Shown one piece after another: positions 141 to 44,192 of a stretch of 64,000 bases of DNA (the stretch's first letter is position 1; every line of letters starts with the position of its first letter). The notes under the pieces are model-generated. The model saw nothing but the letters and a program-made list of their open reading frames with translations, was not told where the DNA came from and ran no database searches. A program made the position numbers and the translations under genes. Source of the stretch: a virus (Duplodnaviria; Heunggongvirae; Uroviricota; Caudoviricetes); IMG/VR virus record IMGVR_UViG_3300043178_000179; one strand, written 5' to 3'.

Positions 141-2696
141 GTGGAGGAACCGGTGAGGCTCCGGCGCCATCGGGTGCGCCTGCCCGAGCGCGCCGGGACC
201 GTCCCGCGCCCGCCGCCGTACTGGCCGGGCATCCCGGAAGTCCGCCCGTTCGAGGACGTCTACGACGGTGACGAGGTCCTGGACGACCTGCTGCTGGAGG
301 TGGACCTGCTGACTGCTCCGAAGAAGGGCTCGAAGCAGGGTGGCTTGTCCGAGCTGGTCAAGGCGAAGGTCGAGGCCGCGACGGCCAAGGCCAAGGCAAA
401 GACGGCGAAGCGAGAGGCCAAGGCTGCGCGAAGCGAGGCGGCCGAGCAGCGCCACGAGGCGCAGGCCGAGCGCGCGGAGACTCGGGAGGTCCGCGCCGAG
501 GGCCGGACGGCCCGCGCCGAGGACGGCGGGGAGTCCGTCGGAGCGGCCCGTTCCGGGATGTTGCCGGTGATGGACCCGGAGCACAACGTCCGGGAGACGG
601 CCAAGCAGCTCGCGCTGTTGGAGGACCACCTCTTCCACCCCGCGAAGCGGTGCGCGGACTGCATCCGCAAGCACCTGCTGACGGCCGAGGCGTTGGCCGA
701 GGAGGCCACGACGCTCGACGTGGACGGTGCGATGGGCGAGGCGACGACGGAGGGTCTGGTCGAGAAGATCCGCGGGTTGCAGCGCGCGTACCTCGCCGGG
801 ATCTCGAAGCGCGACCTCGCGCAGAAGGTCCGGGAGATCCGGAAGGACCTGGCCAAGCGGTCCTTCGGCGCGGTCTCGAAGCAGGCATCCCAGATGCCGG
901 AAGGGAGCCGCGCGGTCCGCGACCGGGTCGGTCCTGAGCCGGTGGAGGGTGGCGACCCGCCGCTCGGGGTTCCGCCTCCCATGGCCTTCTCCCAGGACTC
1001 GGTCGATGGCTTGGGCGGGTCGGCCGACGAGCGGCCGGACCTGGAGACGGCGGTCCAGTCGGCCCGGTCCGAGTGGCTCGGGCGGAACGGGGTGCTGGCG
1101 GTCCGCGCCATCGGTGGTGACACCATCCGGGTGGAGCGCGCGCCGGTCGACGCCCCCGAGCCGCCGGGGACGTACATGGGCTGGCCGGTCGAGACGACGA
1201 CGATCAGGTGCCGGCCCGGGCTGCACCGGGTGTTGCCGCTGGCGCGCTGGACGCTGGTGGGGCAGTACGGGATCGAGTCGGTGGCGCTGGAGAAGAACCC
1301 GTCCCACCGTCCGCTCACGCTCGATCCGGAGTATCGGCTGGTCGCGCTCGTGTCCGGTCGCGGGAAGATGCCGGGGCAGGCGAGGATCCCGGACTCGTAC
1401 ATGGGTTGGCCGATGGTGACCCGGCCGCTTCGGGCCCGCGGCTCCACGGCCCGCGGCTCCTCGGCGCTCATGGAGAGCGATGCACACCGCCGTGGGTTTC
1501 GTGGCGGCGAGGCCGTGATCTTCGGCGTGCCCCGTGCCGATGAGTCCGGGCTCTTCACCTGGCGCCGTGGGCACACGCTCCAGGTCGGCGACCGGTTCGA
1601 CGACGACCTGGTGGAATCGATCCCGCAGCAGGGCTGGGTGGCGGTCCGGGATCCGGCCCGCAACACGGCGCACTGGGTGCCCGAGGCCGCGGTCGTCCGG
1701 GTCCAGCCGAGCCCGATCTCGGATTGGCTGCGGGGCCGGACGCTGACCCGGTTCGACGAGAAGCAGCTCACGGGGGCGGTGGTGAGCCAGCGTCCGCTGA
1801 CCGAGGAGCAACTCGCGATGGCGGACCTCGTGCAGGGCGTGATGGCGCCTCATCTCGCCAACGCCTGCGACTGGGCCGGCATCGACCCGGCCCTGGTGGC
1901 GAACAAGGGGTGCCGGCAGGACGTGCCGCAGAAGCTGCTGGTGGCCGCGCTGGTGAACGCGGCGTACGAATCGAACTTCGACCCCGAGGCCGTCGGAGAC
2001 AAGGGCGCCTCGGTGGGGCTCTTCCAGCTCAACGTCCGGGGTGCCGGCCAGGGGATGTCGGTGGTGGATCGGAAGAACCCGATCCGCAACACGCTCCGGA
2101 TCCTGGAGGTGGCCTCGAAGAAGGCCCCGGCCTTCGCGACGGCGATGGTGAACGACGCCCAGGCCGCGGTCACGGCGCCGATGGTGGGCGCGGCTGAGAT
2201 CGGGACTCCTGTCGGAGAGTACGCGCGGCTCTGGACGGTCCACATCGAGGAGCCGAAGTACGCGGACAAGAAGGGTGCCCTGCGCGGCCGGACGGCCGAC
2301 CTGTTGGTGGCGGCCGGGACGCGCCCGACCGTGGCGACGGACCTGCCGGTGCTGCGTGCCGGCGTCCAAGGCCAAGGGCCGGCCGTCGCGCTGCTCCAGC
2401 AACGGCTGAACGCGCACGGCTACCCAGTGGACGTGGACGGGACCTTCGGACCTCGGACGCTCGCGGCCGTGATCGAGTTCCAGCTGGCCCGCGGGATCGT
2501 GCCCGACGGCGTGGTCGGTCCGAGCACCTGGTCGGCGCTGATGCGCGAGCGCGGCGCGGTTGCCCCGGCGCCCGCCCCGATGGCCCGCACGGCCCCGTCG
2601 GCGCCGAGCGCCGGTCCATCGGCCGGCGTGCTCGTGCTCGGTGGCCTCGCAGCGGCCGCGGCGCTCCTCGGGGTCGCGCTGAGCCGCCCCGGCTGA
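141..2696 (+). CDS. virion-associated murein hydrolase: coiled-coil N-terminus, lytic transglycosylase (SLT) domain, PG_binding_1 domain, C-terminal hydrophobic anchor
   Basis: GTG start. SLT motif 'AAYESNFDPEAVGDKGASVGLFQL'. PG-binding repeat 'LLQQRLNAHGYPVDVDGTFGPRTLAAVIEFQ'. K/A/E-rich coiled coil near the N-terminus. C-terminal 'VLVLGGLAAAAALLGVAL'. Confidence 0.6.
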   Translation: MEEPVRLRRHRVRLPERAGTVPRPPPYWPGIPEVRPFEDVYDGDEVLDDLLLEVDLLTAPKKGSKQGGLSELVKAKVEAATAKAKAKTAKREAKAARSEAAEQRHEAQAERAETREVRAEGRTARAEDGGESVGAARSGMLPVMDPEHNVRETAKQLALLEDHLFHPAKRCADCIRKHLLTAEALAEEATTLDVDGAMGEATTEGLVEKIRGLQRAYLAGISKRDLAQKVREIRKDLAKRSFGAVSKQASQMPEGSRAVRDRVGPEPVEGGDPPLGVPPPMAFSQDSVDGLGGSADERPDLETAVQSARSEWLGRNGVLAVRAIGGDTIRVERAPVDAPEPPGTYMGWPVETTTIRCRPGLHRVLPLARWTLVGQYGIESVALEKNPSHRPLTLDPEYRLVALVSGRGKMPGQARIPDSYMGWPMVTRPLRARGSTARGSSALMESDAHRRGFRGGEAVIFGVPRADESGLFTWRRGHTLQVGDRFDDDLVESIPQQGWVAVRDPARNTAHWVPEAAVVRVQPSPISDWLRGRTLTRFDEKQLTGAVVSQRPLTEEQLAMADLVQGVMAPHLANACDWAGIDPALVANKGCRQDVPQKLLVAALVNAAYESNFDPEAVGDKGASVGLFQLNVRGAGQGMSVVDRKNPIRNTLRILEVASKKAPAFATAMVNDAQAAVTAPMVGAAEIGTPVGEYARLWTVHIEEPKYADKKGALRGRTADLLVAAGTRPTVATDLPVLRAGVQGQGPAVALLQQRLNAHGYPVDVDGTFGPRTLAAVIEFQLARGIVPDGVVGPSTWSALMRERGAVAPAPAPMARTAPSAPSAGPSAGVLVLGGLAAAAALLGVALSRPG

Positions 2697-2757
2697 CCCA
2701 TGCGGGTGCTGGTGATCCAGTGCGGCGCGCGGAAGCGCTCTGGAACGCATCCCGTCC

Positions 2758-3608: not shown

Positions 3609-4142
3609 ATGAGCCGAGCGACGCCCAGCGGGCGCACCAAGACGCCGCGCGTGGACCGGGACCGTTGGCGCACGCCACCGGAGGTCGTCGCGGACCTCGC
3701 GCGTCGGTTCGACGTCACCTTCGGCCTCGATGCGGCGGCGACGACGGGGACCGAGGTATGCGCCCGGGGGATCAGCCCGGAGATGAACGCGCTGGCGATG
3801 CGGTGGGCGCCGCTGTGTCCGCCCGACGGGGCCGTGTGGCTGAACCCGCCCTACTCTCAGCGCGGCGGAGGGCTCTTGGCCTGGTCCGAGAAGGCCGCCG
3901 AGGCCGCGGCGGAACGGACCGTGGTGGTCTTGGCTCCGTCGACCCCGGACGCCCGGTGGTTCCGGCTGCTCTGGAAGTGGTCGTCGCGGGTGCTGTTCAG
4001 CGAAGGGCGGATCCAGTTTCTCCAGCCGGACGGCTCGCCGAGCAGGGGCAACCCCGGTGGGTCGAGCGTGTTCCTGCTGCACCGGAACAGCCCAGGCGCA
4101 CCGCGCGTCGAGTTCTGGCCGATTCCCCGGGTGCGCCGGTGA
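3609..4142 (+). CDS. phage N6-adenine DNA methyltransferase (Dam-like, phage_N6A_met family)
   Basis: 'DAAA' followed by the catalytic 'NPPYS' motif in a ~177 aa protein, typical of small phage Dam methylases. Confidence 0.75.
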   Translation: MSRATPSGRTKTPRVDRDRWRTPPEVVADLARRFDVTFGLDAAATTGTEVCARGISPEMNALAMRWAPLCPPDGAVWLNPPYSQRGGGLLAWSEKAAEAAAERTVVVLAPSTPDARWFRLLWKWSSRVLFSEGRIQFLQPDGSPSRGNPGGSSVFLLHRNSPGAPRVEFWPIPRVRR

Positions 4143-4644: not shown

Positions 4645-4735
4645 GGCCTGACGGGTCTCTACGGAGACCCCGCCCGCGGCTATGCGGGCGGGTACGAGGA
4701 GGCCCCATGATCGTGCGCGGGAGACCCCATGACGC

Positions 4736-5002
4736 TTGCCTCGCTCGACTACGTCTCCGACCCCGATCTCTGTGGGCTGCCAGTCGTCCTCGTCTGCTAC
4801 CTCTACGCCCTCGTCGAGCGCGGGGAGGCCACATGGCCGACCGTGTGAGCTTTGGCGCGGCGCGGTCGGTGGCGGACCACGCGACGAAGGGCGAGCCGTG
4901 ACCGCGCTCCCCATTGCCTCCGCCGTCGCCGCGCTGGACCTCCCCGCGACCCGGGCGGCTGCGGCCGTAGTCGAGATGCTGGCGAACCGCGGGGCGCCAT
5001 GA
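4736..5002 (+). CDS. small hypothetical protein; its 3' end carries the shared junction motif '...RAAAAVVEMLA'
   Basis: The C-terminal peptide and its DNA recur at the 3' end of ORF 26236..26553. Start uncertain. Confidence 0.25.
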   Translation: MPRSTTSPTPISVGCQSSSSATSTPSSSAGRPHGRPCELWRGAVGGGPRDEGRAVTALPIASAVAALDLPATRAAAAVVEMLANRGAP

Positions 5003-5634
5003 TCCGCGCCCTCTCGATCAGCGGCGGCAAGGACTCGGCCGCGGCGGCTCTCCACATGGAGGAGCTGGGCCTGGAGGTTCACGCCCGGATCTACATGGAC
5101 ACGGGATGGGAGCACCACGACACCTACGTTCACCTGGATCTACTGGAGCGCAGGCTGGGCCCGATCACGCGCCTGCGCGTCGATGTCCCGATCCTCCCCG
5201 GCTACGAGGCTGAGGTCGCGAAGCTGGAGGCCATGCTTGGGATCTCCCCCTCCGCCATGGTCCGGCTCTGTGTTTGGAAGGGATATTTCCCCGGCCAGGG
5301 TACGCGCTGGTGTACGCAGGTCCTCAAGCACGTCCCCGCCGCGCGCTGGTACGCGGCGCAGGCCGACGACGTGGAGAGCGTGGTCGGGGTCCGCCGCGCC
5401 GAGTCGCTGGCCCGATCCCGGCTTCCCGATCGCGAATCGATGGAGCGCGTCGAAGTGCCGCCGGTGGTCCGTCTCCCGGGTGGGAGCCGGCGGATCGAGC
5501 TGGGCCACGTCGAGCAGTGGAGGCCGCTCGCGGACTGGTCCGAGGAGGAGGTGGTGCGCATCCACCAGCGTCACGGGCTCCCGCTGAACCCGCTCTACAG
5601 GCGGGGTTCGCGGACGATCCGCGGGTCGCAGTGA
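4999..5634 (+). CDS. PAPS reductase-like PP-loop ATP pyrophosphatase
   Basis: PP-loop 'SISGGKDS' near the N-terminus. ATGA overlap with the upstream ORF. Confidence 0.7.
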   Translation: MIRALSISGGKDSAAAALHMEELGLEVHARIYMDTGWEHHDTYVHLDLLERRLGPITRLRVDVPILPGYEAEVAKLEAMLGISPSAMVRLCVWKGYFPGQGTRWCTQVLKHVPAARWYAAQADDVESVVGVRRAESLARSRLPDRESMERVEVPPVVRLPGGSRRIELGHVEQWRPLADWSEEEVVRIHQRHGLPLNPLYRRGSRTIRGSQ

Positions 5635-5960
5635 TCCGTCGCCTGGAGGAGATCGCCAGCGCGCGGGTCCAGGAGCGACGCACGGCCCGCGTCGAGGCCG
5701 GCGTGAAGCAGCGCAAGGACATGCCGCCGCCGGCCTGGTTCCAGGTCCGCGATCCAGTCGCCATCGCGGCGTGGCGAGCCACGCACCCGGACGCAGCCGA
5801 GGACGAGCAGAACCGCCACCTGTGCGCGCCCATCGACCAGGCCCTGGAGTGGGCGCGCACCTCGCGCGGCGGGCGCCAGGTCCAGATGTTCGGCGCACCG
5901 TCGCGGGATTGGGCCTGCTCACGATTCGGCTACTGCGAGACGCGGCCGGAGGAGTCGTGA
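5631..5960 (+). CDS. hypothetical protein
   Basis: GTG start overlapping the upstream TGA. Cys-containing 'CAPIDQALEW...FGYCE'. Confidence 0.4.
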   Translation: MIRRLEEIASARVQERRTARVEAGVKQRKDMPPPAWFQVRDPVAIAAWRATHPDAAEDEQNRHLCAPIDQALEWARTSRGGRQVQMFGAPSRDWACSRFGYCETRPEES

Positions 5961-6307
5961 CCGCCTGGACCGTCACCACCAAGGGGAACCTGCGGTGCCG
6001 GGCACACTTCCGCCGGGAGGGAGCCGCTGCTGGCATTCCCGGCGCGCTCCCCATTGCCTCGGAGTTGATCCGCGCTGCCGTAGTCGCGCTGGACCTCCCC
6101 GCGGTGCGTGCGGCTTTCCACCTGGTACTCCAGGGGTGGCCCGAGCTGGGCGAGTGGACCAAGCGCGGCACCTCCCCGCTGAGTGCGGCGTGGACCAAGG
6201 CGACGGCATACCGCGTCGTCGGTAACGCCGTGCCGCCTTCGCTGGCCGAGGCCGTCGGGCGGGCCGTGATCGAGGCCGATGCCACGTGGCGCAGGGTGGC
6301 GGGGTGA
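5957..6307 (+). pseudogene. remnant of a C5-cytosine DNA methyltransferase (C-terminal motifs IX-X only)
   Basis: 'LQGWPELGEW...YRVVGNAVPPSLAEAVGRAVIEA' is near-identical to the C-terminus of the full methylase at 26550..28334. Motifs I-VIII are absent. Confidence 0.5.
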
Positions 6308-7205
6308 CCCGCCCCCGCGGTCTCTACGTCCCCTTCGCCGGGGCGCTGGGCGAGACGCTGTGCCTGCTCGGGGGGCGGCGACTGTTGCCCCCGTGCGGGT
6401 ACATGGGCTCCAAGCGCGCATACGGGCCGGCGATCCTCGGCGCGCTCGGCCTGCACCCCGGTCAGGGCTGCGACCTCGCTCTGATCGTGGACGCCGGACC
6501 CTGGGGCTGGGCCTGGCAGCACCTCTTCCAGGCGGACACGGCGCGATCCGTCGCGGCCCAACTCCGCGCGTGGCGTGGCGAGGACCCGGTCGGGCTCTGG
6601 CGCCGGCTGGCCGCAGAGCCACCGCCCGGGGATCTGATCGACGGGATCGCGACTTGGCTGTGGCTCCAGGCGCGGTGCGCGAACGCTTGTCCGGTGTGGT
6701 GGGATGATACCGGCTGGCGGATGGGCGACAAGCCGCGGTCGGGTGGGGCGAAGGGTGCGATTCAGCACGGGCACCACGCGGACCCCGACCACCCGCACAT
6801 CCAGTGGGGACGGCGGCCGGCCGCACCCGAGCCGGCCGTTCGACATGCCAGCCGCGAGATCCGCCCCAAGGGCACGGGGCGCGGGACTGTACGCGGCATG
6901 ATCGACCCCGGCACCATCGCCGCGCGGATTGAGGCCATCGCCCACCAGTTTGCGGCGTACCTCTGCCTCCAGGCGGGGGCGGCGCTCAGCAAGCCCGTGG
7001 TCGTGCGCGACGGGAGATGGAAGACGGCGGGTTACGGTCACATCAGCGAATCCGCTCGCGAGCGTGGCTTCGTGGACCGCCTGCGCTCCGACATGATCGC
7101 GCTCTGCGTCGACCGCCTCGCGGAGCTCCGGGCTCCGGCCATCGTCGCCTGCCACGCCCGCGCCGAGGACTGCGTGCCGCAGGGCGACCTGGACGGCTGG
7201 GTCGC
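6127..7205 (+). repeat. direct repeat copy A (~1.08 kb) of the methyltransferase module
   Basis: Near-identical to 28155..29199. Both start at 'ctccaggggtggcccgagctgggcgagtgg'. Confidence 0.8.
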
Positions 7206-7494
7206 GATTCTCGATCCGCCCTACCGCGGCGCGACGAGCTACGCGGCGGACTGCCCGCGCGAGACGGTGCTGGCGATGGCGCTGGACCTGCGAGCCCGCG
7301 GCGCGCGGGTCGCGGTCTGCGAGGCGGAGCCGCTGGCTCTCCCCGGCTGGCATCACCTCGACCTGACGGGCGTGCGCAGCGCGGGCGGGCCCGGATCGTG
7401 GTCCGCACGGCGCGCGAAGGGCGAGTGGCTGACGCTCAGCGACCCGCCGGCGGCGAGGCCGGTGGTCCAGCAAGCGCTCTGGCGGTCCGCATGA
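6303..7494 (+). CDS. DNA methyltransferase, N6A/N4C type
   Basis: 'YVPFAGALGE' (motif I-like) and 'ILDPPYRGATSY' (motif IV, DPPY). GTG start overlapping the upstream stop. Confidence 0.6.
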
Positions 7495-8444
7495 TCCTGC
7501 TCTCCGACGCCATCAGCGCCGGCTATCCGCAGATGCGGCGGGACCTGCTCGCTGCGCGCGGCCCTGACGACATCGCGGCCCTGGTGCTCCAGCGCCTCGG
7601 CCACCTGGCCGGCTCCGCGGCGGCTGCCGCCCGCGCCGCGCTGGAGGCCGAGTGGGCATGGCTCCACCATGGACGGCGCCTGCTCTGGCTGGAGCCGCGC
7701 GTCGTGAACGCTCTGCTGGAGGTCCCCATGGCCCCGGTGGTGGCCCCGCCCTGGCCGTGCGCCGTCCAGTGGGCCCCGCACGACGCGCTGATCCATGGCG
7801 AGACCGGCCTGCACTACATCGGCGGGTGGTTGCTGCCGGCGACACCCGCTGGTCGCGTGCCGCTGCTTTCGGCGTGGGCCGGGCATGGCGGGGACGAGGA
7901 GGTGCTGCTGCCGTCCGACTGGACCCATCTTGGGATTGGCACCCCAACGGACTGGCTGCTCCGGAATCTGTGCGCGGCGCTCTCCGATCCTCGGCTGAGC
8001 ACCAGGCTCCGACTGCGACGGGGCGATCGCCTGGCCCGGAAGGCATCACGCTCCACCGCTCGGCCCCGCGTCGAGCGACTGGAACTGACCCCCGACTACC
8101 GGGGAGTCTGGCGTGAGGTAGTGGTTGGGCCCGCCGAGCACCACGAGGCGGGGACGCGCACCCAGGTCCGAGAGCATGCCGTCTCCGATCACACCGCCCG
8201 CGCGTGGGTGCGGGCAATGCGCAACGAGGACGACGAATGGGTGCCTGTCGAGGCCGGCTACGACTGCGACCTCGAGGCCGGCCAAGTGGTGACGCGCTGT
8301 GGGCGTCGCTCGATCCTGATCGCGGTACGGGTGTCCCGGCGCGGGCACGTCCGGGGACGTGGGCTGATGCCGGCGAGGCTTACGCGGGTGATCGGCCCCT
8401 CCCCGCTCGAAGAGGATCGGCCTCTCGACGGGGACGCTCCGTAG
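7491..8444 (+). CDS. hypothetical protein
   Basis: ATGA overlap with the upstream gene. Protein-like composition. Confidence 0.5.
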   Translation: MILLSDAISAGYPQMRRDLLAARGPDDIAALVLQRLGHLAGSAAAAARAALEAEWAWLHHGRRLLWLEPRVVNALLEVPMAPVVAPPWPCAVQWAPHDALIHGETGLHYIGGWLLPATPAGRVPLLSAWAGHGGDEEVLLPSDWTHLGIGTPTDWLLRNLCAALSDPRLSTRLRLRRGDRLARKASRSTARPRVERLELTPDYRGVWREVVVGPAEHHEAGTRTQVREHAVSDHTARAWVRAMRNEDDEWVPVEAGYDCDLEAGQVVTRCGRRSILIAVRVSRRGHVRGRGLMPARLTRVIGPSPLEEDRPLDGDAP

Positions 8445-8575
8445 GATGGAGGCCCAAGAGAACGCACGCTCAGGTCAGCAGCAGGACCGTGCCGAGGATC
8501 ATTCCAGCGGCAACGAGTCCCACCGCCATCGCACGGACCAGGTCATCGAGGGTGAATCGGTCGGGTGGGCGCGTC

Positions 8576-8824
8576 CTATCCCGGGTCCTGGGTCGCTTCG
8601 ACCCGCGGGACCCCCTTTCGCCCGCCCGCGACGTGCTCCACGCCGTTTCCGGCGACGAAGATGCCGAGCACCATCGCCACCCCGTCGAGCACCACCTTTG
8701 CCTCCTCGACCGTGAGCACGTCCAGCGCGAGGCCCACACCGACGACCGCGAGCAGCAGCATCGAGCGGTCCAGCGCGGTCCCCTTCCGGCCCGGCGTCGA
8801 GAGTAGCGTGAAGAGCGCCTTCAT
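8576..8824 (-). CDS. small membrane protein (holin-like, two predicted TM segments)
   Basis: 'MKALFTLLSTPGRKGTALDRSMLLLAVVGVGLALDVL...VAMVLGIFVAG'. ATGA-coupled to the upstream minus-strand gene. Confidence 0.35.
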   Translation of the reverse strand: MKALFTLLSTPGRKGTALDRSMLLLAVVGVGLALDVLTVEEAKVVLDGVAMVLGIFVAGNGVEHVAGGRKGVPRVEATQDPG

Positions 8825-11042: not shown

Positions 11043-12647
11043 ATGGCTCGCGCCCGCACGCGCCGCTGGCTCGCAGCGCACGACGCCGAGCTGCGCTCCG
11101 TGCGGACTGCCGCCGAGCTCACCGACCTGATCCGGGTCTACGACGCCGAGGTCACCGGCCGCGCCTGGGAGGCGCGCGAGGCGCGGGAGGCGGGTCGCCG
11201 GCGCCACGTCGCCGCGCGGCGGACGGAGCGGGTGCAGGCGCTCCGCGCGGCCGCGGCCGCCGCGGACCCGGGCCCGGTCTCGACGCCGGAGGCGGGCCGA
11301 CGCTGGGCGAGGCTCGGGGTGCTGCCGCGGCCGGTGTACCACGCGACCCGGTTCGGTCCGCAGGTTCTGGCCACGGGACTGCGGAGCCGGTTCCAGCTCG
11401 CGGTGGGGGCGAAGGAGACGGCCCGTCCCCGTCCCGTGGGCCTCGGCGGCGGACCCGACGAGTACGTCTCGGTGACGCCGAGCCGTGTGCTGGCGTTGCG
11501 CCTGGCCGCGGCCTTGCAGGCGATCAACGAGGCGTTCAAGGATCCGGAAGGCGTGAGCGCCTGGTTCCGGGAGCACTGGCTGCCGTGGGTCTATCGGAGC
11601 CGGGTGTGGAGGGAGAAGCACTACTCCGGGGACCGGCCCGGTCCCGAGTTCGTCCGCAGGGTGCTGAACGACGCCTCGCAGGTTGTGTTCGGGAAGCCCT
11701 GGGCTCCTCCACAGGTGCATGTCCCCTGGATCATGGGAGGCCAGTACCCGGTCCCGGCCTCCTCGATCAGCGTGGTGACGGCCTACGTGCAGGCGGACCA
11801 GTTCGTGAGCAGTTCCTGGAAGGCCACCGACCGGACCTGGGGGCTGGTGGTGGACGCTCCGGCCATGCTCCGGCCGGACTGTCCCCGGGTCCGTGGTGGT
11901 CCCCGGACGAACATCGTGGATGCCGTCCGGCCTGCCGAGTACGCGCCGCTGCTCCCCGCGGCGGTGGCGACCGCGACGGAGAACCCTTTCGAGGGGAACG
12001 AGATCCGCGCCTGCCCCGAGGACGTGACCGTGGTAAGTTTCCAGCCGGTACTCAACTGGCGGAGGATCCTCATGCCCCGATCCGGAAGCGCGTCTCGTCA
12101 TTCGCCCGGCCATTCGCCCGGCTACTGCGAGGTCCCCTGGCTGGCGTCGGGCGGTCGCAACGTGACCGCGAAGGTCCCCGCGGCCCTCGCGGAACCCGGT
12201 GTGGATCCCTTCCAGGAGCAGCGGCGTCGGTGCGTGCTCGCGGTCTACAACCGGTTGGTGGCCTCGGGCGAACCGGAGGGTCGGCAGACCACTTCCCGCG
12301 CCTTCGCGATCTGCACGAAGCAGCTCCAGCGGTACGGCTACATCGTCCCAGGGACGGCCCGTCCGACGCAGAAGGGGATGGCCCGCTCGCTGGAGAAGCT
12401 GGCGGGGCCGCAGGCGGCCGAGCGCCGCGCGGCCTACGAGCAGGTGCTCCGGACGGCCCGGCAGGGTCGGCCGTCGCTCAAGGAGCGGCAGCAGGCGCGG
12501 CGGAAGCTGGACGCCCTACTCGCGCAGGCGCAGAAGGAGTCGGCGAAGGTCATCCCGCTGCCGACCGGGATCGACCGGCTGCTGCGCGAGGCGAAGCGGG
12601 CCGCGAAGCGCCGGACCTCGCGCCGCGGGGCCGCGGCCCGCTGGTGA
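11043..12647 (+). CDS. hypothetical protein (534 aa)
   Basis: ATG start, protein-like composition. Confidence 0.5.
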   Translation: MARARTRRWLAAHDAELRSVRTAAELTDLIRVYDAEVTGRAWEAREAREAGRRRHVAARRTERVQALRAAAAAADPGPVSTPEAGRRWARLGVLPRPVYHATRFGPQVLATGLRSRFQLAVGAKETARPRPVGLGGGPDEYVSVTPSRVLALRLAAALQAINEAFKDPEGVSAWFREHWLPWVYRSRVWREKHYSGDRPGPEFVRRVLNDASQVVFGKPWAPPQVHVPWIMGGQYPVPASSISVVTAYVQADQFVSSSWKATDRTWGLVVDAPAMLRPDCPRVRGGPRTNIVDAVRPAEYAPLLPAAVATATENPFEGNEIRACPEDVTVVSFQPVLNWRRILMPRSGSASRHSPGHSPGYCEVPWLASGGRNVTAKVPAALAEPGVDPFQEQRRRCVLAVYNRLVASGEPEGRQTTSRAFAICTKQLQRYGYIVPGTARPTQKGMARSLEKLAGPQAAERRAAYEQVLRTARQGRPSLKERQQARRKLDALLAQAQKESAKVIPLPTGIDRLLREAKRAAKRRTSRRGAAARW

Positions 12648-13183
12648 ACGGAGGCTGGCTGGCGCTCGGCGCGTCCGCCGGGCTCGCCCTGGCCGCCGGC
12701 GTACCGAGAGGAGCGGCCGCGCGCCTGGCCGCACCGATCCGCCGGCAGGTGGTCCCGCTCCAGCGGGCATCCGTGCAGGTGTTCACCTGCGACACGGCCT
12801 TCGGGGACTGCGACCCGGAGCGCCCGTCCAAGGGGCATTGTCTGTTGGCCGCGATGGCACTCCAGGACCTCGTGGGCGGAAGCATCCGGACCGGGACGGT
12901 CCAGGGTACGCCACACTACTGGAACCGGGTCGGCCCCTTCGAGGTGGACCTGACGGCGGACCAGTTCGGGTTCAAGGCCCCCCGCTGGCGCCGCGGCCGA
13001 CTCTACGCCGGGACGAGGTTCCCCCGGGAGGCCGGGGAGGCGCTGGCGCCGGTCGGTCAGAACGAGACGGTGAACGGGCTGTACCGGAGGTTCCGCCGCC
13101 GCCTGGTGCCCCTGTTGCGCGGCGCCGGACTCGCGGGCGCCGCGAAGACGCTCTCACGTCCCTTGACCGTTCTCAGCCGCTGA
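12644..13183 (+). CDS. hypothetical protein
   Basis: GTGA overlap with the upstream stop. 'CDTAFGDCDPERPSKGHCLLAAMAL'. Confidence 0.45.
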   Translation: MNGGWLALGASAGLALAAGVPRGAAARLAAPIRRQVVPLQRASVQVFTCDTAFGDCDPERPSKGHCLLAAMALQDLVGGSIRTGTVQGTPHYWNRVGPFEVDLTADQFGFKAPRWRRGRLYAGTRFPREAGEALAPVGQNETVNGLYRRFRRRLVPLLRGAGLAGAAKTLSRPLTVLSR

Positions 13184-13664
13184 CGCTCACGTAGACGTAG
13201 TGGTCGCCCTGGTCCGTTCGGAGCCAGAAGTACGCCTCGGCATCGGAGCCGACGTTGGCCTTGAGCCGCATGTCCGCCTCGCCGTCCACCTCGTCCGGGA
13301 CGGTGACGACGAGCCAGCCGTACCCGTTGTCCACGGTGATGCCGGTGGCGCAGCCCCGCAGCGAGACGTTCTTGGTCTGCCCGGCGTTCATGGCGATGTA
13401 GTCGGCCACGACGATACCTTCACAGGGCACGGTGTCGCCCGTCTCGTGGCCGCCGGTCTCCGCGGTCTCGACCGCCGTGTCGTCGCCGCCGGTCTCGGGC
13501 GTCCCGGTCTCCTGGACGTCGGAGTCCGAGCCCGAGTCCGAAGGCACGCCGGTGTCGCCGGTGTCGGCGGTGTCCCTCACGATGCCGTCGGGCCGGCGTC
13601 CGTCGGCCATCCGCGCGTTGAGGTCGTCCACGTCCAGCATGACGCAAGCGAGGAGCAGGGTCAC
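13173..13664 (-). CDS. putative lipoprotein with an acidic D/T/G-rich linker
   Basis: 'MTLLLAC' short signal with a lipobox-like LLAC. Tail-to-tail with the upstream plus-strand operon. Confidence 0.5.
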   Translation of the reverse strand: MTLLLACVMLDVDDLNARMADGRRPDGIVRDTADTGDTGVPSDSGSDSDVQETGTPETGGDDTAVETAETGGHETGDTVPCEGIVVADYIAMNAGQTKNVSLRGCATGITVDNGYGWLVVTVPDEVDGEADMRLKANVGSDAEAYFWLRTDQGDHYVYVSVSG

Positions 13665-13714
13665 GAAGCCTCCATGACAGGCTAAGGGAGCCTATCCGCC
13701 CCGCTCCGCGGCTG

Positions 13715-14131
13715 TCAACCGTTCCCCGCCTCCGGCCGCGGAAGCGACAGGTTCGGAGACTGCACGGTGAGCCGCCCCGCGAGGATGTCGTCGCGCACGT
13801 GGTCGGCCATCCTGGCCGCGAGGGCCTGCACGACCTCTTGGTTGAGGCCGTGCCGGTACAGGTTGAACAGCCGCGCCTGGTCGGAGTCCACGTTCCGGGA
13901 GATCCGCCCGATCACCTCGGCCACCGGTCCCTCGCCTACCACGGATTCCTCCGGCAGCAGGCCGAACTCCGCGAGGCGGCACTCCAGGTTGGTGAGCGCG
14001 ATCGCCATGAGCGTGTCGTCGGGCTGTCGGCCCGGTTCGAGGCTCCGGTCATGGCAGGCCGCCAACACCTCGCGCACCGCGAGGACCGCGATCCGCAACT
14101 CCGAGGGGACGTGGACCGGGAAGGTACTCAT
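13715..14131 (-). CDS. hypothetical protein
   Basis: Likely start at 'MSTFPVHV'. Divergent from the plus-strand gene at 14425. Confidence 0.4.
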   Translation of the reverse strand: MSTFPVHVPSELRIAVLAVREVLAACHDRSLEPGRQPDDTLMAIALTNLECRLAEFGLLPEESVVGEGPVAEVIGRISRNVDSDQARLFNLYRHGLNQEVVQALAARMADHVRDDILAGRLTVQSPNLSLPRPEAGNG

Positions 14132-14424
14132 GTGGCCGCCCTTAGCCCCGTAAGGCCAAGGCGTCAAGGCATCGCTTGACATCGCGCCCATGGCGCGCTA
14201 AGCGGGGTTCATGGTCGTCATCGTCAGTCGCGGCGGATGGTCGAGGCGGTCCAGAGGGGCCGGCCGCGCGCCTGTACGGTCCCGCGAGGTGGGTGTGTTC
14301 GGACTGAGCACCGACCACCGGAGACCGACCATGCCGAATGACCTCCTGATCCGCCAGTACGGCCCCCGGCGACCTGCTCGCGGATCTGAGCAATGATCGC
14401 CGCCATGCCCGGGAGCGGGCCCTG

Positions 14425-14883
14425 ATGTCCGGCCAGGTCCCGCTGTTTCCGAGGCCGCCCCGCCGCTACGCCCCGGCGCGATCCGCGCGCCAGGAAGCTG
14501 CCGAGGCCCGCCGAGAGCTGCTTGCCCAGCTCCCCGCCCCGTTGCCGTCCGATGCGCCGGTGGAAGCGCTGGCCCGCGGGGATGCCTGGTGCGAGGCCGA
14601 GGGTCGGTGGACCCGCGTGCTCCGCTTCGGTGAAGCCGCCTTCGATCTCGCGACGGTGGCCCGCTTCACCTGGGGGCCGGCCCCCTGGCCCTGGTGGTGG
14701 GCGGTCCACGACCCCTGGGCCGAGGCGGTGGAGGGCCGCCGCGCCGGTGGCTTCGCGAGCGGGATCGTCCGCGAAGGCGAAGCGGCCATTCTGACGGCCA
14801 TGCGCCGGGCCGACGAGCGGTTGGTGCGGGCCGGGCTCTCCGCGCCGCCGGAAGGCTACCCCGAGGTTCTCCTGCGGGGATAG
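14425..14883 (+). CDS. hypothetical protein
   Basis: Protein-like 152 aa with 'WGPAPWPWWWAVHDPW'. Confidence 0.45.
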   Translation: MSGQVPLFPRPPRRYAPARSARQEAAEARRELLAQLPAPLPSDAPVEALARGDAWCEAEGRWTRVLRFGEAAFDLATVARFTWGPAPWPWWWAVHDPWAEAVEGRRAGGFASGIVREGEAAILTAMRRADERLVRAGLSAPPEGYPEVLLRG

Positions 14884-14892: not shown

Positions 14893-15921
14893 ATGACAAT
14901 CGACGAGTTGCTTCGACGCTCACGCCCCGTCTCGGACTGGTCCGGGGTGACGATCGCCCGCTGGCGGCTTCCGGACTTCGAGCCGATCGCGGTGGCCTTC
15001 TCGGGTGGGAAGGACAGCCTCGCCTGCGTTCTCCATCTCCTGGAGCTGGGCGTGCCGAAGGAGCGGATCGAGCTGTGGCACCACCTGATCGATCCGCCTG
15101 GCCAGCAGTTCATGGACTGGCCGGTGACGCCGGCGTATTGCAAGGCGGTCGCCGACGCCCTGGACCTCCCGATCTACTTCTCCTGGAAGGAGGGAGGGTT
15201 TCTCCGGGAGTTGCTGCGTGAGAACGAGGCGACCGCGCCGGTCGGCTTCGAGACTCCGAGCGGCCGCGTGATCCGCGTCGGTGGAAAGGGCCCTCCAGGG
15301 ACCCGTCGTCGGTTCCCGCAGGTCTCGGCCGATCTCAGCGTGCGGTGGTGCAGCGCGTACCTCAAGATCGACGTCGCCGCGCGGGTGATCACGAACGATC
15401 CGCGCCTGGACGCCGCGACGATGCTGCTCGTGACGGGAGAGCGCGCGGAGGAGTCGCCGGGCCGGGCACGGTATGCCGAGGCGGAGCAGCACAAGACGAC
15501 GACACGCCGGCGTCTTGTGGTCCAGTGGCGCCCGGTGCTGCGCTGGCCGGAGTCGGAGGTCTGGGAGATCATCGAGCGCTGGCGGATCAACCCGCACCCC
15601 GCCTACCGGCTGGGCTGGGGGCGCCTGAGCTGCATGAGCTGCATCTTCGGCGATCCGCGCCAGTGGCGCGCGGTCCAGCAGATCGCGCCCCGGGCTTTCG
15701 CACGGATCGCCGCCTATGAGCAGCAGTTCGGGACCACGATCAGCCGCGAGGGCAACGTCGTGGACCGTGCCCGCTGGGCCGGCGCCGTGGCGCTGCCGCC
15801 AAGCAGCGCGCCCATCGTCGCGAGCGCCATGAGCGAGGAGTTCACCGAGCCCGTGGTGTTGCCCTCCGGCGCCTGGCTGCTTCCCGCCGGCGCGTTCAAG
15901 AGGAGCGGGGGCCCGACTTGA
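14893..15921 (+). CDS. PAPS reductase-like PP-loop ATP pyrophosphatase (second paralog)
   Basis: PP-loop 'AFSGGKDS', 'SVRWCSAYLK', C-terminal 'CMSCIFG'. N-terminus 'MTIDELLRR' resembles the DLDALL motif family. Confidence 0.7.
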   Translation: MTIDELLRRSRPVSDWSGVTIARWRLPDFEPIAVAFSGGKDSLACVLHLLELGVPKERIELWHHLIDPPGQQFMDWPVTPAYCKAVADALDLPIYFSWKEGGFLRELLRENEATAPVGFETPSGRVIRVGGKGPPGTRRRFPQVSADLSVRWCSAYLKIDVAARVITNDPRLDAATMLLVTGERAEESPGRARYAEAEQHKTTTRRRLVVQWRPVLRWPESEVWEIIERWRINPHPAYRLGWGRLSCMSCIFGDPRQWRAVQQIAPRAFARIAAYEQQFGTTISREGNVVDRARWAGAVALPPSSAPIVASAMSEEFTEPVVLPSGAWLLPAGAFKRSGGPT

Positions 15922-25779: not shown

Positions 25780-26000
25780 ACACCAGGGACATCGCGCGCG
25801 GCGAGGCGCGCATGTACCAGGACGCCGATCCGCTCGTCTGCTACCTCGTGGCGGACGGCTGGGCCGAGGTCCTGCACCTGCGGGCGTGGGACACGCACGC
25901 GCCGTACCGGGTGCGCCCCGGGACGGTCGTGGAGGTCCGGCGGCAGCGTGAGCTGCATCGGCTCCCCGATGGCTGGGCCGAGCGCCAGGTGCAGGACTGA
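25776..26000 (+). CDS. small hypothetical protein
   Basis: ATGA-coupled, 74 aa. Confidence 0.4.
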   Translation: MNTRDIARGEARMYQDADPLVCYLVADGWAEVLHLRAWDTHAPYRVRPGTVVEVRRQRELHRLPDGWAERQVQD

Positions 26001-26239
26001 TGTCCGCCCTGCTCGAAGCACTGGACGCACGCCTCATGGAGACGTGTACCGATCCGGGTGGTCTGCTGGATCCACTGGATTACGATGTGTGGGTCCGAAA
26101 GCGGCGACTGCCGGACTTTCGAGCCACCCGCGATCTTGTCGCAGGTGTGTGCCAGGATCTACGGCTTCCCCCGGAGGAGACCCATCGGATCATGGTGTCC
26201 ATCTTCGGGTGGGCGTGCTGCCGCAGGACTGAGCTGTGA
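26000..26239 (+). CDS. small hypothetical protein
   Basis: ATG overlaps the upstream TGA. 79 aa. Confidence 0.4.
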   Translation: MSALLEALDARLMETCTDPGGLLDPLDYDVWVRKRRLPDFRATRDLVAGVCQDLRLPPEETHRIMVSIFGWACCRRTEL

Positions 26240-26553
26240 CCTCGCGCGACCTCGCCCTCCTCCTCCCGGCCCTGGACCGCGCCACCGGCCGGCCGTGGAC
26301 GACGTGCGTGTGCGGCGACGGGCGGCTGCTCGCGTGGCCCGCGGGCGATGGCGGTCGCATCGGTGGCCAGCTTGCGCTCATCGAGTGCTGGACGCAGGAC
26401 GCCTACCGCTCAATGCCGCACACGATCCGGCGCGTGGTTCTCCGGTCGCAGTTCCGCGCGCTGGATGGCGACCGGCGGGACATTGAGGCCGGGCCCGGCT
26501 GGCCGATCCGGGCGGCTGCGGCCGTAGTCGAGATGCTGGCGGCGCGGACGTGA
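26236..26553 (+). CDS. small hypothetical protein ending in the shared '...RAAAAVVEMLA' junction motif
   Basis: GTG start. The 3' end is DNA-identical to the 3' end of ORF 4736..5002. Confidence 0.4.
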   Translation: MTSRDLALLLPALDRATGRPWTTCVCGDGRLLAWPAGDGGRIGGQLALIECWTQDAYRSMPHTIRRVVLRSQFRALDGDRRDIEAGPGWPIRAAAAVVEMLAART

Positions 26554-28334
26554 TCGCCGTTGACCTTTTCGCTGGTGGCGGCGGCGCAGCGCTGGGCCTC
26601 GCTCGCGCCGGCATCGAGCACGCGGCCTGCGTGGACTTCGATGAGGACGCCGTAGTGGTCGCCCGGCGCCTCGGCCTGCCTGCTGTCTGCGCGCGGGTGG
26701 AGGAGTGGACGCCGCCGTCAGGCTCGGTCGATCTCGTGTGGGCGAGCTGCCCCTGCCAGGACTGGAGTACCGCCGGGAAGCGCAGAGGGGCGCAAGGGCA
26801 GCGCAACGGCTACCCCGCGCTGTTCGCGGCACTCGACCGGATGGCCGAGGCGGGCTGCTCCCCGAGGTGGCTCCTGGGCGAGCAGGTCCCCGGGATCCTC
26901 GCCCACAAGAGTGCTGCGGAGTGCGACGAGGGGCGCGACCCGCGGCCCATCGACTGCCCCGCCTGCTACTGGCACGCCGAGCTGGTTCCCGAGTTCCGCC
27001 GCCGCTTCGCGGTCGTCCAGTGGCGCGTGCTCGACGCGGCGGACTACGGCGTCCCCCAGCGGCGACGGCGGGTGATCCTCGTCTGCGGTCCCGTGCCGAT
27101 CCGCTGGCCGGCGTCCACCCACAGCCGCGAGGCGCTGGTGTGGGCCAAGTGGGGACGCGGCGAGCTGGGGGGCGTCCAGGGCGGATCCTACTGGATCGAG
27201 CACGGGATCTCGCCCGTCGGAGAGCCATCCCGAGAGGAGCGCCGGGTGCTGAGCCAGATGCGATCCGTCGGCCTATTCGGCGTGCCGTGGGCGCCGCAGC
27301 GGTGGCGGACCGTGCGGGACGCGCTGGGGCTGGCCCAATGGGCGACCGAGACGCGATTCAGCGGCGGACTCCTGGCGGTCACGGGGCCCGAGCGGAGCGC
27401 GGCCCCGCAGTCGGTGCGCGTGCTCACCGCAGATGAACCCTCGGATACGCTGAGCGGCGGCACACCGACGGGGAGTCATCGAGCGCCGTTGGTCCAGATG
27501 ATCGGGGGCAACCGAGGGCGGGCGCAAGGTGGTGTGCTGCGTGGCCCGATGATCAACGGGGTAGATCAACCCGGATGGACGGTAGATCGCACCCCCACAA
27601 GCCTCCGTGTCATCGGTGGTGGACATCATCCACCCGCCGACCAGGAGGCCACGCGCACCCTCAGCGACCTGACAGACGAGCCATCCACGACGATTCCGGC
27701 GGGGTACGTCGGAAGCAACGGGCCGTGGGTGCTCGGCACCGGCGCGGAGACAGCGAGCCGCGCTCGGCGCGTGCTCAATGCGAAGCATCCGCCCGCTGAC
27801 CCGGATGCGCCGATGCCGACCTGTCGTTCGGGCGGCGACGGACATACCGCCCCGCCGCTCTACTTGCGCACCGAACAGGTGGGTGCCTCCGCGACGAGCG
27901 TGGATGAACCGAGCCCGACGCAGCCAACGGTCGGGAACCAGTACCTCCACCCGGCCGATCCGGGAGTGCGCCGCAAGGGTGACCTGCTGGATCTCGATGC
28001 CGCCTCACCGACGATCCGCGCGCAGTCGTCCGTGGACGCCTCGGGGCACCAGGGCGGGCACGCGGCGCCGTTCGTCGCCCTCGGTGACAGCGAGAGCGAC
28101 GCGGTGTTCCTCGCCACCGGAATCCGCCGCCTTACGCCTGGGGAGTGCGCTATACTCCAGGGGTGGCCCGAGCTGGGCGAGTGGCGCCGAGGTGGCGACT
28201 ACCCGCTGAGCGCAGCGCGCACGAAGAGCATGGCATACCACGTCGTCGGTAACGCCGTGCCGCCTTCGCTTGCCGAGGCCGTCGGGCGGGCCGTGATCGA
28301 GGCCGATGCCACGTGGCGCAGGGCGGCGAAGTGA
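26550..28334 (+). CDS. DNA (cytosine-5)-methyltransferase
   Basis: Motif I 'VDLFAGGGGAALGL', motif IV 'SCPCQDWSTAGKRRG', motif X 'GNAVPP'. GTGA-coupled start. Confidence 0.8.
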   Translation: MIAVDLFAGGGGAALGLARAGIEHAACVDFDEDAVVVARRLGLPAVCARVEEWTPPSGSVDLVWASCPCQDWSTAGKRRGAQGQRNGYPALFAALDRMAEAGCSPRWLLGEQVPGILAHKSAAECDEGRDPRPIDCPACYWHAELVPEFRRRFAVVQWRVLDAADYGVPQRRRRVILVCGPVPIRWPASTHSREALVWAKWGRGELGGVQGGSYWIEHGISPVGEPSREERRVLSQMRSVGLFGVPWAPQRWRTVRDALGLAQWATETRFSGGLLAVTGPERSAAPQSVRVLTADEPSDTLSGGTPTGSHRAPLVQMIGGNRGRAQGGVLRGPMINGVDQPGWTVDRTPTSLRVIGGGHHPPADQEATRTLSDLTDEPSTTIPAGYVGSNGPWVLGTGAETASRARRVLNAKHPPADPDAPMPTCRSGGDGHTAPPLYLRTEQVGASATSVDEPSPTQPTVGNQYLHPADPGVRRKGDLLDLDAASPTIRAQSSVDASGHQGGHAAPFVALGDSESDAVFLATGIRRLTPGECAILQGWPELGEWRRGGDYPLSAARTKSMAYHVVGNAVPPSLAEAVGRAVIEADATWRRAAK

Positions 28335-42113: not shown

Positions 42114-42196
42114 GCGCGGATGGCGGAAACGGCAGACGCACCGAGCTCAAGCCTCGGCTCCCACGGGAACTGCGGGTTCGACTCCCGCTCCGCGCA
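42114..42196 (+). tRNA. tRNA-Leu (CAA)
   Basis: Acceptor GCGCGGA/TCCGCGC. Anticodon loop cTCAAgc. Long variable arm. T-loop TTCGACT. Confidence 0.8.
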
Positions 42197-42201
42197 CTCG
42201 T

Positions 42202-42287
42202 CCCGGTGTAGACGTCTATGGAGGACGGGCGGGCTGTAAACCCGTCGCCTTCGGGCCAGGGAGGTTCGATTCCTTCCACCGGGACCA
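42202..42287 (+). tRNA. tRNA-Tyr (GTA), CCA encoded
   Basis: Acceptor CCCGGTG/CACCGGG. Loop ctGTAaa. Long variable arm. Confidence 0.8.
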
Positions 42288-42291
42288 TCTT

Positions 42292-42380
42292 GGAGAGGCC
42301 GTCCTGCGTCGGCGCCAGGTACGCGGTTGGAAACCGCGTGGCCCTCATGGGGTCCGGGGGTTCGACTCCCTTCCTCTCCG
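42292..42380 (+). tRNA. tRNA-Ser (GGA)
   Basis: Acceptor GGAGAGG/CCTCTCC. Loop ttGGAaa. Long variable arm. Confidence 0.75.
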
Positions 42381-42385
42381 CTTGT

Positions 42386-42473
42386 GGCCGGGTGGTGGAA
42401 CTTTGGTAGACACGCCGCGCTCAGGACGCGGTGCTTTCGGGCGCTGAGGGTTCGACTCCCTCCCCGGTCACCA
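42386..42473 (+). tRNA. tRNA-Leu (CAG), CCA encoded
   Basis: Acceptor GGCCGGG/CCCGGTC. Loop ctCAGga. Long variable arm. Confidence 0.8.
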
Positions 42474-42477
42474 TCGT

Positions 42478-42563
42478 GTGCTCGTGGTGGAACATGGTAG
42501 ACACGCCGGGTTGAGGCCCGGTGCCCTCGGGCGGTGAGGGTTCGACTCCCTCCGAGCACACCA
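42478..42563 (+). tRNA. tRNA-Leu (GAG), CCA encoded
   Basis: Acceptor GTGCTCG/CGAGCAC. Loop ttGAGgc. Long variable arm. Confidence 0.8.
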
Positions 42564-42567
42564 TCAC

Positions 42568-42638
42568 AGGGGTCGTACAGGGTACGGGCTGGACTCCAAA
42601 TCCGGCCTTGAAGGGTTCGAGTCCCTTGGCCCCTGCCA
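42568..42638 (+). tRNA. tRNA-Trp (CCA), CCA encoded; compact D-arm
   Basis: Acceptor AGGGGTC/GGCCCCT. Loop ctCCAaa. T-arm aaggg-ttcgagt-ccctt. Confidence 0.65.
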
Positions 42639-42639
42639 C

Positions 42640-42726
42640 GGGAGCGTGGCCGAGAGGAAAGGCACCGGCTTGCTAAGCCGGCGAGGGTCCGGTGGGCCCG
42701 CGCGGGTTCGAGTCCCGCCGCTTCCG
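42640..42726 (+). tRNA. tRNA-Ser (GCT)
   Basis: Acceptor GGGAGCG/CGCTTCC. Loop ttGCTaa. Long variable arm. Confidence 0.75.
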
Positions 42727-42731
42727 CCTCT

Positions 42732-42804
42732 GGACAGGTAGCCCAGTCGGTAGAGCACTCGATTGAAGATCGGGGTGTCGGCGGTTCGATTCCGTCCCTG
42801 TCCA
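42732..42804 (+). tRNA. tRNA-Phe (GAA)
   Basis: Perfect acceptor GGACAGG/CCTGTCC. Loop ttGAAga. Confidence 0.85.
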
Positions 42805-42808
42805 CCTT

Positions 42809-42894: not shown

Positions 42895-42898
42895 CCTT

Positions 42899-44184: not shown

Positions 44185-44192
44185 CGACCCGC

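Follow-up and report, generated by a model that had tools for sequence, protein, structure and literature searches.

How does a single phage genome come to carry two sets of the same DNA methylase genes, each damaged in a different place, and where have the missing parts gone? The question is raised by positions 4,736–7,494 of a 64,000-nucleotide sequence from a tailed phage (Caudoviricetes; IMG/VR record IMGVR_UViG_3300043178_000179), the whole of which we call the window, together with a second stretch of the same window at about 26–30 kb; we refer to the two as locus A and locus B. The first-pass annotation of this DNA described locus A as a recently shuffled module, in which a cassette for 3′-phosphoadenosine-5′-phosphosulfate (PAPS) reductase had replaced the N-terminus of a C5-cytosine methylase (C5). 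We consider it likely, instead, that the loci are two diverged copies of one ancestral DNA-modification operon of four genes (X, Y, C5 methylase and Dam-like adenine methylase) with complementary decay: locus A keeps the Dam-like gene intact and holds remnants of X, Y and C5, whereas in locus B X and C5 are intact, Y is absent and the Dam-like gene is truncated. The features concerned are listed here with the evidence in brackets.

26236..26553, plus strand: intact gene X of 105 aa, with which the operon opens (homologues P0080–P0082)
26550..28334, plus strand: intact C5 cytosine DNA methyltransferase, 594 aa (PF00145, phrog_116, TIGR00675, motifs)
28313..29503, plus strand: Dam-like methyltransferase copy B, truncated and fused (alignment; equals protein P0001 from M40 onwards)
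29201..29503, plus strand: orphan 100-codon tail of copy B, fused in frame (frame plot, overlap)
28153..29200, no strand assigned: repeat copy B (BLASTN self-comparison, alignment)
6126..7215, no strand assigned: repeat copy A (BLASTN self-comparison, alignment)
4898..5002, plus strand: 34-codon remnant open reading frame (ORF) (alignment to Y of contigs L008 and L003)
4947..4984, plus strand: native 3′ end of X, a 38-nt fragment (matches 26504–26541 at 37/38 positions, 97%)
4999..5960, plus strand: PAPS-reductase-like gene, inactivated (PF01507, E=6e-16; end-to-end homology; intact allele P0088)
5957..6125, plus strand: remnant of gene Y, phrog_24928 (alignment to Y of L008)
6126..6307, plus strand: last 60 C5 codons (motif X, GNAVPP), in-frame fusion to the Y remnant (alignment)
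6286..7494, plus strand: predicted Dam-like (D12-class-like) DNA methyltransferase copy A, full length (homologues, fold, motif)
7096..7140, plus strand: 45 nt (15 codons, a conserved helix) present in copy A and in contig L001, deleted in copy B (alignment)

Comparison of the window with itself by BLASTN recovers one direct repeat (E=0), in two segments that pair 6126–7107 with 28153–29137 and 7141–7215 with 29126–29200, and no other long repeat involving either locus. The repeat reported earlier at 6127–7205 and 28155–29199 is therefore real and can be extended to 6126–7215 and 28153–29200, with 94.3% identity over 1045 ungapped columns. Its net 42-nt length difference resolves into 45 nt missing from copy B (A 7096–7140, flanked by short ATCG repeats) and 3 extra nucleotides in copy B near 28855. 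What the single identity figure hides is that divergence is patchy: two stretches, 6158–6212 and 6826–6852, are only 59–66% identical and hold half of all substitutions, while outside them identity rises to 96.9%. In the second stretch copy A and L001 have one version, and copy B carries the ancestral-looking PGEQRIYQ, resembling distant homologues such as P0003 and P0004. Judged from these alignments, the two patches suggest fine-scale exchange with other alleles. The homology ends exactly after the Asp codon of the DPPY motif (A 7213–7215, B 29198–29200), just where copy B had been said to diverge. Within the shared block the copies differ by 13 synonymous and 18 nonsynonymous codons (12 of the latter outside the variable patch). 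How old is the duplication? At the 15 point differences between A and B over 6734–7215, L001 agrees with B nine times and with A six times, so that A, B and the L001 allele appear roughly equidistant, and since A and B are about as far apart as each is from L001, "recent" can be meant only in a relative sense. The earlier statement that DNA-modification genes were duplicated and shuffled otherwise holds.

The full C5 methylase placed ahead of the copy-B paralogue is confirmed by matches to PF00145 (E=2.6e-32), phrog_116 (E=3e-56) and TIGR00675 (E=8e-26), and every canonical motif of the Dcm-like C5 class can be read from the translation (I, DLFAGGGG; IV, PCQ; VI, EQV; VIII, QRR, here QRRRR; X, GNAVPP). 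At locus A much less of this gene is left than the approximately 115 codons claimed before. The ORF at 5957–6307 has 116 codons, but codons 1–56 derive from gene Y, and a blunt junction at 6125/6126 joins them to C5 codons 535–594. With motif X alone, this fragment does not belong to the C5 methylase family. Relative to the corresponding part of copy B, it has 11 nonsynonymous and 4 synonymous codon differences, and because of this excess the codon comparison suggests relaxed constraint on the tail. Upstream of the junction, the Y remnant consists of the start codon region, an internal deletion of ~190 nt and then 6005–6125, cut after ..RAAFHL; the Y residues ..THFRREGAAAGIPGALPIASELIRAAVVALDLPAVRAALHL.. 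of L008 match 6005–6125 at 97.5%. The C5 tail is thus fused behind Y and not behind a PAPS cassette, which lies one gene further upstream. Among Pfam, PHROG and NCBIfam models Y matches phrog_24928 alone.

The PAPS-reductase-like gene sits exactly between the X-tail remnant and the start of Y. Two items of the first-pass annotation, a PAPS reductase and a small ORF, are one gene that now reads as two ORFs (4999–5634 and 5631–5960) with a GTGA overlap between them. When the two are merged, the translation can be aligned over its full length with phage 186 Orf84 and Rivra gp60 and corresponds to single proteins of ~330 aa in phages 186, P2 and Rivra. An intact allele of 339 aa, P0088, is found on contigs L012 and L013 at 95–97% DNA identity to the window gene, and against it a deletion of 58 nt between 5607 and 5608 takes out SGRVGCWPCIFANKAEIARL and puts what follows out of frame; contigs L010 and L011 have this lesion too. 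The N-terminal fragment has the SGGKDS PP-loop of the PF01507 family, the conserved Cys motif GRVGCWPC (CxxC) is lost, and so the domain is not intact; by its sequence the window gene is a pseudogene. The signatures SGGKDS, NPLY..G..RVGCxPC and TSRGG of phage 186 orf84 and P2-type genes are shared with P0088 and the merged window sequence, the window copy differing from orf84 in the loss of the Cys motif and of the reading frame. Homology between the window and L012 runs from ATG-1 to 5–11 nt beyond the stop codon, and the gene appears to behave as a discrete movable cassette that turns up in different contexts. A second PAPS_reduct gene, at 14893–15921 (PF01507, E=4e-10), is 28% identical to the broken one and may cover for the loss at 4999–5960.

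The short shared sequences that had been taken to mark the junctions are real and not due to chance: the window contains exactly two copies each of GCGCTCCCCATTGCCTC (4904/6044) and GCGCTGGACCTCCCCGCG (4931/6086), against 0.00–0.01 expected, and the ORF at 4898–5002 and the interval 6044–6103 have exact 17- and 18-mers in common. They do mark junctions, but are pieces of Y (4904–4955 and 6044–6125) and the 3′ end of X (4947–4984 and 26504–26541) rather than dedicated recombination sites. The 38-nt X tail directly precedes the PAPS start (4999) in one locus and the C5 start (26550) in the other. The ORF at 4898–5002 can be parsed into the Y start GTGACCGC, an internally deleted Y piece ALPIAS..ALDLPATRAA and the X 3′ end AAVVEMLANRGAP with its stop codon. 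The Y piece is joined to the X tail at ~4955, at common 'RAA' codons, and is more heavily deleted than the one in 5957–6125; the ORF has a GTGA overlap on its upstream side and an ATGA overlap into the PAPS gene. A stretch at 4801–4830 (30 nt, 87% identity) might be one more piece of Y, but the match is not strong enough to count. At locus B gene X is complete, with homologues P0080 (96% identity) and P0081 and P0082 (71%) that are all 105 aa long, and every member of the family shares the C-terminus ..GWPxRAAAAVV(E/G)ML... In Pfam, PHROG and NCBIfam there was no match to X, to the tail of copy B or to the gene at 7491–8444, which follows locus A.

What was the original order of these genes? 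Megablast of both loci against 50,697 GenBank phages gave no match. IMG/VR scans with the C5 methylase, the gene at 7491–8444 and the E1 gene downstream of locus B returned no relatives, and the scan with the Dam-like protein returned L001 alone, which breaks off inside the Dam-like gene. A metagenome scan gave three short distant loci, of which L003 was the sole useful one, and no complete relative genome was found in the GenBank phage, IMG/VR and metagenome scans. The relatives behind the ancestral order are short contigs of 1–3 kb at 70–97% identity. In L003, X is followed by a Y of 176 aa, a mini-C5 that retains 59 residues from the N-terminus and 32 from the C-terminus, and the Dam-like gene, with a GTGA overlap at each junction. 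L008, from the same sample as L001, matches 25833–26555 of the window at 95%, that is the upstream flank of locus B and gene X; its upstream gene order is that of locus B and X is followed by Y. In L009 a 27-codon ORF separates X from the start of C5. L012 and L013 have the intact PAPS gene, a mini-C5 of 43 codons (codons 1–31 plus the last 12) and the Dam-like start; in L013 two slightly different mini-C5 copies flank the PAPS gene, while L012 has an exact 100-nt terminal repeat. The layout with the PAPS gene between two mini-C5 copies is probably real, although that of L012 alone could be an assembly cycle. Looking at related contigs for alternative cassettes, as proposed earlier, thus does place the PAPS gene in other contexts (L012 and L013), but in L003 it is Y that adjoins C5. 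The contexts of the closest C5 homologues (P0090 and P0094) have none of the neighbours X, Y and Dam-like gene. Taken together, the contigs point to an ancestral order X, Y, C5 methylase, Dam-like adenine methylase, with 4-nt (A/G)TGA overlaps, from which Y and C5 would have been repeatedly lost or shortened in different lineages, the PAPS gene being added as a movable piece. In L003 itself (1839–2756, minus strand) the module ends in a truncated Dam-like gene, and the gene beside it has, judged by eye, the look of a bacterial fumarylacetoacetate hydrolase; L003 may be part of a host chromosome that carries the remains of a decayed prophage.

Copy A of the Dam-like gene occupies an ORF of 402 codons with DPPY encoded at 7213–7224. 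Its probable start is the GTG at 6304, which makes a GTGA overlap with the upstream stop and agrees with the N-termini of homologues. The protein stays below threshold in Pfam, PHROG and NCBIfam, in which it departs from known D12-class enzymes; it belongs to a family with ~80 metagenomic homologues. Eighteen residues are invariant over 49 of these, including D310, P311 and Y313 and, further, xMGxK and D69. Motif IV, (D/N)PP(Y/F), is present as DPPY at residues 310–313, its D, first P and Y being invariant in the 49 homologues and its second P conserved in at least 90%. PF02086 is matched weakly by 29 of the 49 (best E=1.5e-5), and the family profile finds in the PDB only DpnM (E=0.25) and Mcbe1 (E=0.85), aligned at GGKR and DPPY, with GGKR of DpnM opposite MGSKR of copy A. 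An AlphaFold model of copy A (predicted local distance difference test score, pLDDT, 75.6; predicted template-modelling score, pTM, 0.73) retrieves E. coli Dam, Mcbe1 or DpnM as all of its top 15 Foldseek matches in the PDB (probability 0.98–1.00; TM-score 0.50–0.58 normalised to the target). The model shows the alpha-class order of an S-adenosylmethionine (AdoMet)-binding region, a target-recognition domain and a catalytic region. Because invariant residues, the weak PF02086 matches, profile matches and fold matches agree, we read copy A as a predicted divergent Dam-like, alpha-class DNA methyltransferase. This is the layout of the orphan phage Dam/D12-class enzymes (E. coli Dam, DpnM, Mcbe1), with the AdoMet-binding region at the N-terminus (xMGxK, DAGPWGW), an inserted target-recognition region and DPPY towards the C-terminus; in contrast to Dam, copy A is ~130 residues longer and has a low-confidence insert at residues 151–252. 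A small Dam-type methylase also lies at 3609–4142 (PF05869, NPPY motif), ~0.8 kb upstream of the locus A remnants that begin near 4898, so that at least three of the DNA methylases encoded by the phage appear to be intact.

The situation is quite different in copy B. From its probable start, GTG 28331, residues 1–296 are homologous to copy A, minus the 15 codons of the deletion, and the protein is then cut after the D of DPPY, so that it reads D-S-V-G and motif IV is absent. Gone with it are the family-invariant D310(PPY), Y319, E346, W355, E380 and T383 and the strands β5–β7 of the Rossmann-like core, and W151 and C260 are unique substitutions at positions where the family has R or K. When A/B substitutions are polarised with the L001 allele, five of the six derived in the B lineage fall in amino-acid-changing codons. 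On this comparison copy B is most likely catalytically dead. The tail that follows has a third-codon-position GC content (GC3) of 0.86–0.92 and a frame that looks coding, ends in an ATGA overlap with the start of a JAB gene, and has no credible homologue besides itself among 1.84 billion representative proteins. We also considered that X (1–89) and this tail might be halves of one gene split by the insertion, and rejected it, since the X family is conserved and complete at 105 aa and has a C-terminus of its own; that the tail has no homologues also speaks against it. Directly downstream of the truncated copy, at 29500–30763, are three genes joined by ATGA/GTGA overlaps: a JAB/MPN protein (HTHPG..S..D motif, weak Prok-JAB match), a 100-aa protein ending in ..KTPFGG-LA that looks like a ubiquitin-like (Ubl) precursor, and a ThiF/E1 protein that matches PF00899 at E=4e-22 and, weakly, the anti-phage 6A-MBL cap2_3 model. 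This trio looks like a phage-borne ubiquitin-like conjugation set without a recognisable E2.

Stop/start overlaps of 4 nt run through both loci in unbroken chains, at 4898, 4999, 5631, 5957, 6304 and 7491 in locus A and at 26236, 26550, 28331, 29500, 29886 and 30185 in locus B. Even the halves of the broken PAPS gene are joined in this way (GTGA, 5631–5634), and the fusion in copy B is likewise in frame and ends in the ATGA overlap with the JAB gene. C5 has suffered three independent in-frame deletions, leaving 59+32 residues in L003, 31+12 in L012 and the Y remnant plus 60 in locus A, and in all three the 3′ end, with its overlap onto the Dam-like start codon, is spared. Because C5 deletions in three lineages kept this end, selection for coupling is suggested: we infer that translational coupling filters which deletions survive. 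Ribosomes would have to reach each upstream stop in order to start the next gene, and only chain-keeping deletions would have survived. According to the GenBank record of phage 186, the gene after orf84 appears to be translated only when orf84 itself is translated through to its end, which is the same coupling point for a PAPS-like gene and the gene behind it. One may go further and suppose that in the 'junk' regions the selected unit is ribosome flow along the overlap chain and not the proteins themselves, the remnants being in-frame relay ORFs, and that cassettes such as PAPS join exactly at overlaps, leaving the local gene as a direct repeat to either side. Pieces of Y do flank the PAPS gene in the window, as mini-C5 copies do in L013; this extended idea nevertheless seems to us unlikely. 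The more limited idea, that coupling may restrict which deletions survive in tightly packed phage operons, is testable.

From the observed homologies, junctions and deletions, the gene order in relatives and the independent assemblies, we infer the following order of events. With two copies of the operon in one genome, redundancy would have permitted complementary decay. Locus B would have kept X and C5 and lost Y, while its Dam-like gene lost the 15-codon helix and everything from DPPY onward and was joined, still in frame, to the 3′ end of the gene, whichever it was, that had stood ahead of the JAB-Ubl-E1 cluster. Locus A would have kept the sole complete Dam-like gene, a blunt deletion fusing the Y remnant to C5 codon 535; as Y lies between X and C5 in relatives (L003), this deletion is the simplest event. 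X would have been reduced there to its last ~12 codons, and the PAPS gene between the X tail and Y broken later by the 58-nt deletion. By this account the phage would still make one C5 methylase (from B), one Dam-like methylase (from A) and the small Dam at 3609–4142, which presumably protect its DNA from host restriction. Several points weigh against so simple a history. A relative with full-length X, Y, C5 and Dam-like genes was not recovered among the contigs of 1–3 kb from which the order was pieced together. X and Y are of no known function, and the term DNA-modification operon therefore rests on two of the four genes. The Y piece upstream of the X tail in 4898–5002 is explained by no single event, and copy A itself has derived changes at conserved positions (S131C, P268S, R274C), so that its predicted activity is not assured. 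Three in-frame C5 deletions would be expected by chance with p ~0.04 (~1/27), which is only suggestive. Finally, the patchy divergence and the ancestral-looking PGEQRIYQ patch of copy B imply that the history includes exchange with other alleles and not simply duplication plus decay.

Where did the second copy come from? That the duplication is not there at all, but an artefact of assembly or a chimeric contig, was the concern voiced in the first-pass annotation, and the source is indeed a JGI metagenome contig, 95,018 bp long. It is hardly credible, however: the copies differ by 6% plus indels, the sequence to either side of each copy is unique to it, L010 (JGI sample 3300037465) is identical to 4712–7351 of the window over 2640/2640 positions, L011 (sample 3300043243) is 99.95% identical to 4708–6899, and the chimeric copy-B protein P0001 is on record in two contigs. 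Since two further metagenomes gave the same assembly of locus A, an assembly artefact is excluded for this locus. It is quite possible, although we do not favour it, that the second copy was acquired by recombination with a related phage carrying its own version of the operon instead of arising by duplication within the genome. The rough equidistance of A, B and L001 over 6734–7215 (L001 with B at nine sites, with A at six) and the patchy divergence would fit such an origin, as would the unrelatedness of the L001 flanks to the window and the mixed affinities of L008, which resembles locus B in its upstream flank (95% identity) and locus A in the Y remnant (97.5%). On the other hand, the GenBank phage, IMG/VR and metagenome scans turned up no donor genome, and acquisition would alter the origin of the second copy while leaving the reciprocal decay of the two operons intact.

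The view closest to the first-pass annotation, that a PAPS cassette replaced the 5′ 1.6 kb of C5 in one recombination guided by the short shared sequences, draws on the position of the 38-nt X tail immediately upstream of both the PAPS start and the C5 start and on the sharp limits of PAPS homology to L012, which mark a discrete cassette. We regard it as improbable, because 169 nt of Y-derived sequence separate the PAPS stop from the C5 tail, the natural neighbour of C5 is Y (L003), the Y/C5 junction is blunt and without shared sequence, and 4904–4948 and 6044–6103 are two copies of Y that are absent at the C5 gene of locus B. A different reading concerns the fate of copy B, which might be a new functional protein, a non-catalytic AdoMet- or DNA-binding module with a new C-terminal domain, expressed together with C5 or with the JAB-Ubl-E1 genes. 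Its ORF is open over 396 codons with GC3 of 0.82–0.92 throughout, tail included, the ratio of 13 synonymous to 18 nonsynonymous differences (12 outside the variable patch) indicates some overall constraint, and 4-nt overlaps couple it on both sides. Yet long open frames are expected by chance at 71% GC, β5–β7, all C-terminal invariant residues and the conserved helix are gone, the B-derived changes are mostly nonsynonymous and fall at conserved R/K positions, and the tail has no homologues; we give this reading little credence. Two diverged operon copies decaying in a complementary manner remain the explanation that we prefer.

Phage mosaicism arises by illegitimate or short-homology recombination at gene boundaries, as in the Hendrix/Hatfull model for lambdoid phages and mycobacteriophages. 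The loci agree with it in having sharp homology breakpoints at or beside start and stop codons (the PAPS cassette), junctions that are blunt or have 0–2 nt of microhomology, and single genes 95–97% identical amid unrelated flanks (L001, L008, L012). They differ in that two versions of the module can be compared directly in one genome, and in that the discarded pieces can still be recognised, as small in-frame ORFs that follow one another in a chain. There is also a likeness to duplication-degeneration-complementation, an idea reportedly put forward by Force and colleagues in 1999: the copies lose different members and the full gene set needs both loci. Here, in contrast, the unit is a viral operon in which whole genes and not regulatory subfunctions were lost, in-genome duplication is not proven and acquisition from another phage is equally possible. 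The locus is therefore a well-resolved example of known processes, ordinary phage mosaicism in unusual detail, and leaves current understanding of phage evolution unchanged. Its value lies in a base-by-base record of the turnover of phage anti-restriction genes, which are duplicated or acquired, trimmed by blunt deletions, joined by inserted cassettes and turned into pseudogenes, with several intermediate states kept in related contigs. For annotators, it matters that three apparent genes (4999–5634, 5631–5960 and 5957–6307) are fragments and that a Dam-like methylase family of ~80 metagenomic members is missed by current profile libraries.

Some further observations concern the C5 gene. Its variable region between motifs VIII and IX is unusually long (~330 aa), and GC3 over 27400–27900 falls to 0.64–0.8 from ~0.9 elsewhere, which may mean a different origin or a disordered segment. 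The homologue P0094 is a D12-C5 fusion protein, with a fusion of methylase and PAPS reductase close by. The 108-kb phage-like contig L016 encodes, at 6001–8727 and 11886–14597, a single 908-aa protein with D12 and C5 methylase domains and one of 903 aa in which an N6/N4 methylase and a PAPS-reductase domain are combined. The same three activities as in the window are therefore physically joined elsewhere.

The window as a whole is phage-like, with 71% GC, 43 tRNA genes, a transfer-messenger RNA (tmRNA), a lysin-type protein of 851 aa and a DUF5131 protein. More than 40 of the tRNA genes lie at 42114–50080 together with the tmRNA (46506–46875; tag peptide ANNNNHFEARAAA), and one tRNA-like gene there, at 42478–42563, has an odd two-base anticodon call. 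A tRNA with the anticodon TTA at 34276–34351 would read UAA stop codons as a suppressor. At 52849–56599 there are tandem paralogous genes of ~380–490 aa with similar N-terminal signal-like segments and conserved blocks, which give rise to the repeat families D14 and D18 with a spacing of ~2.6 kb.

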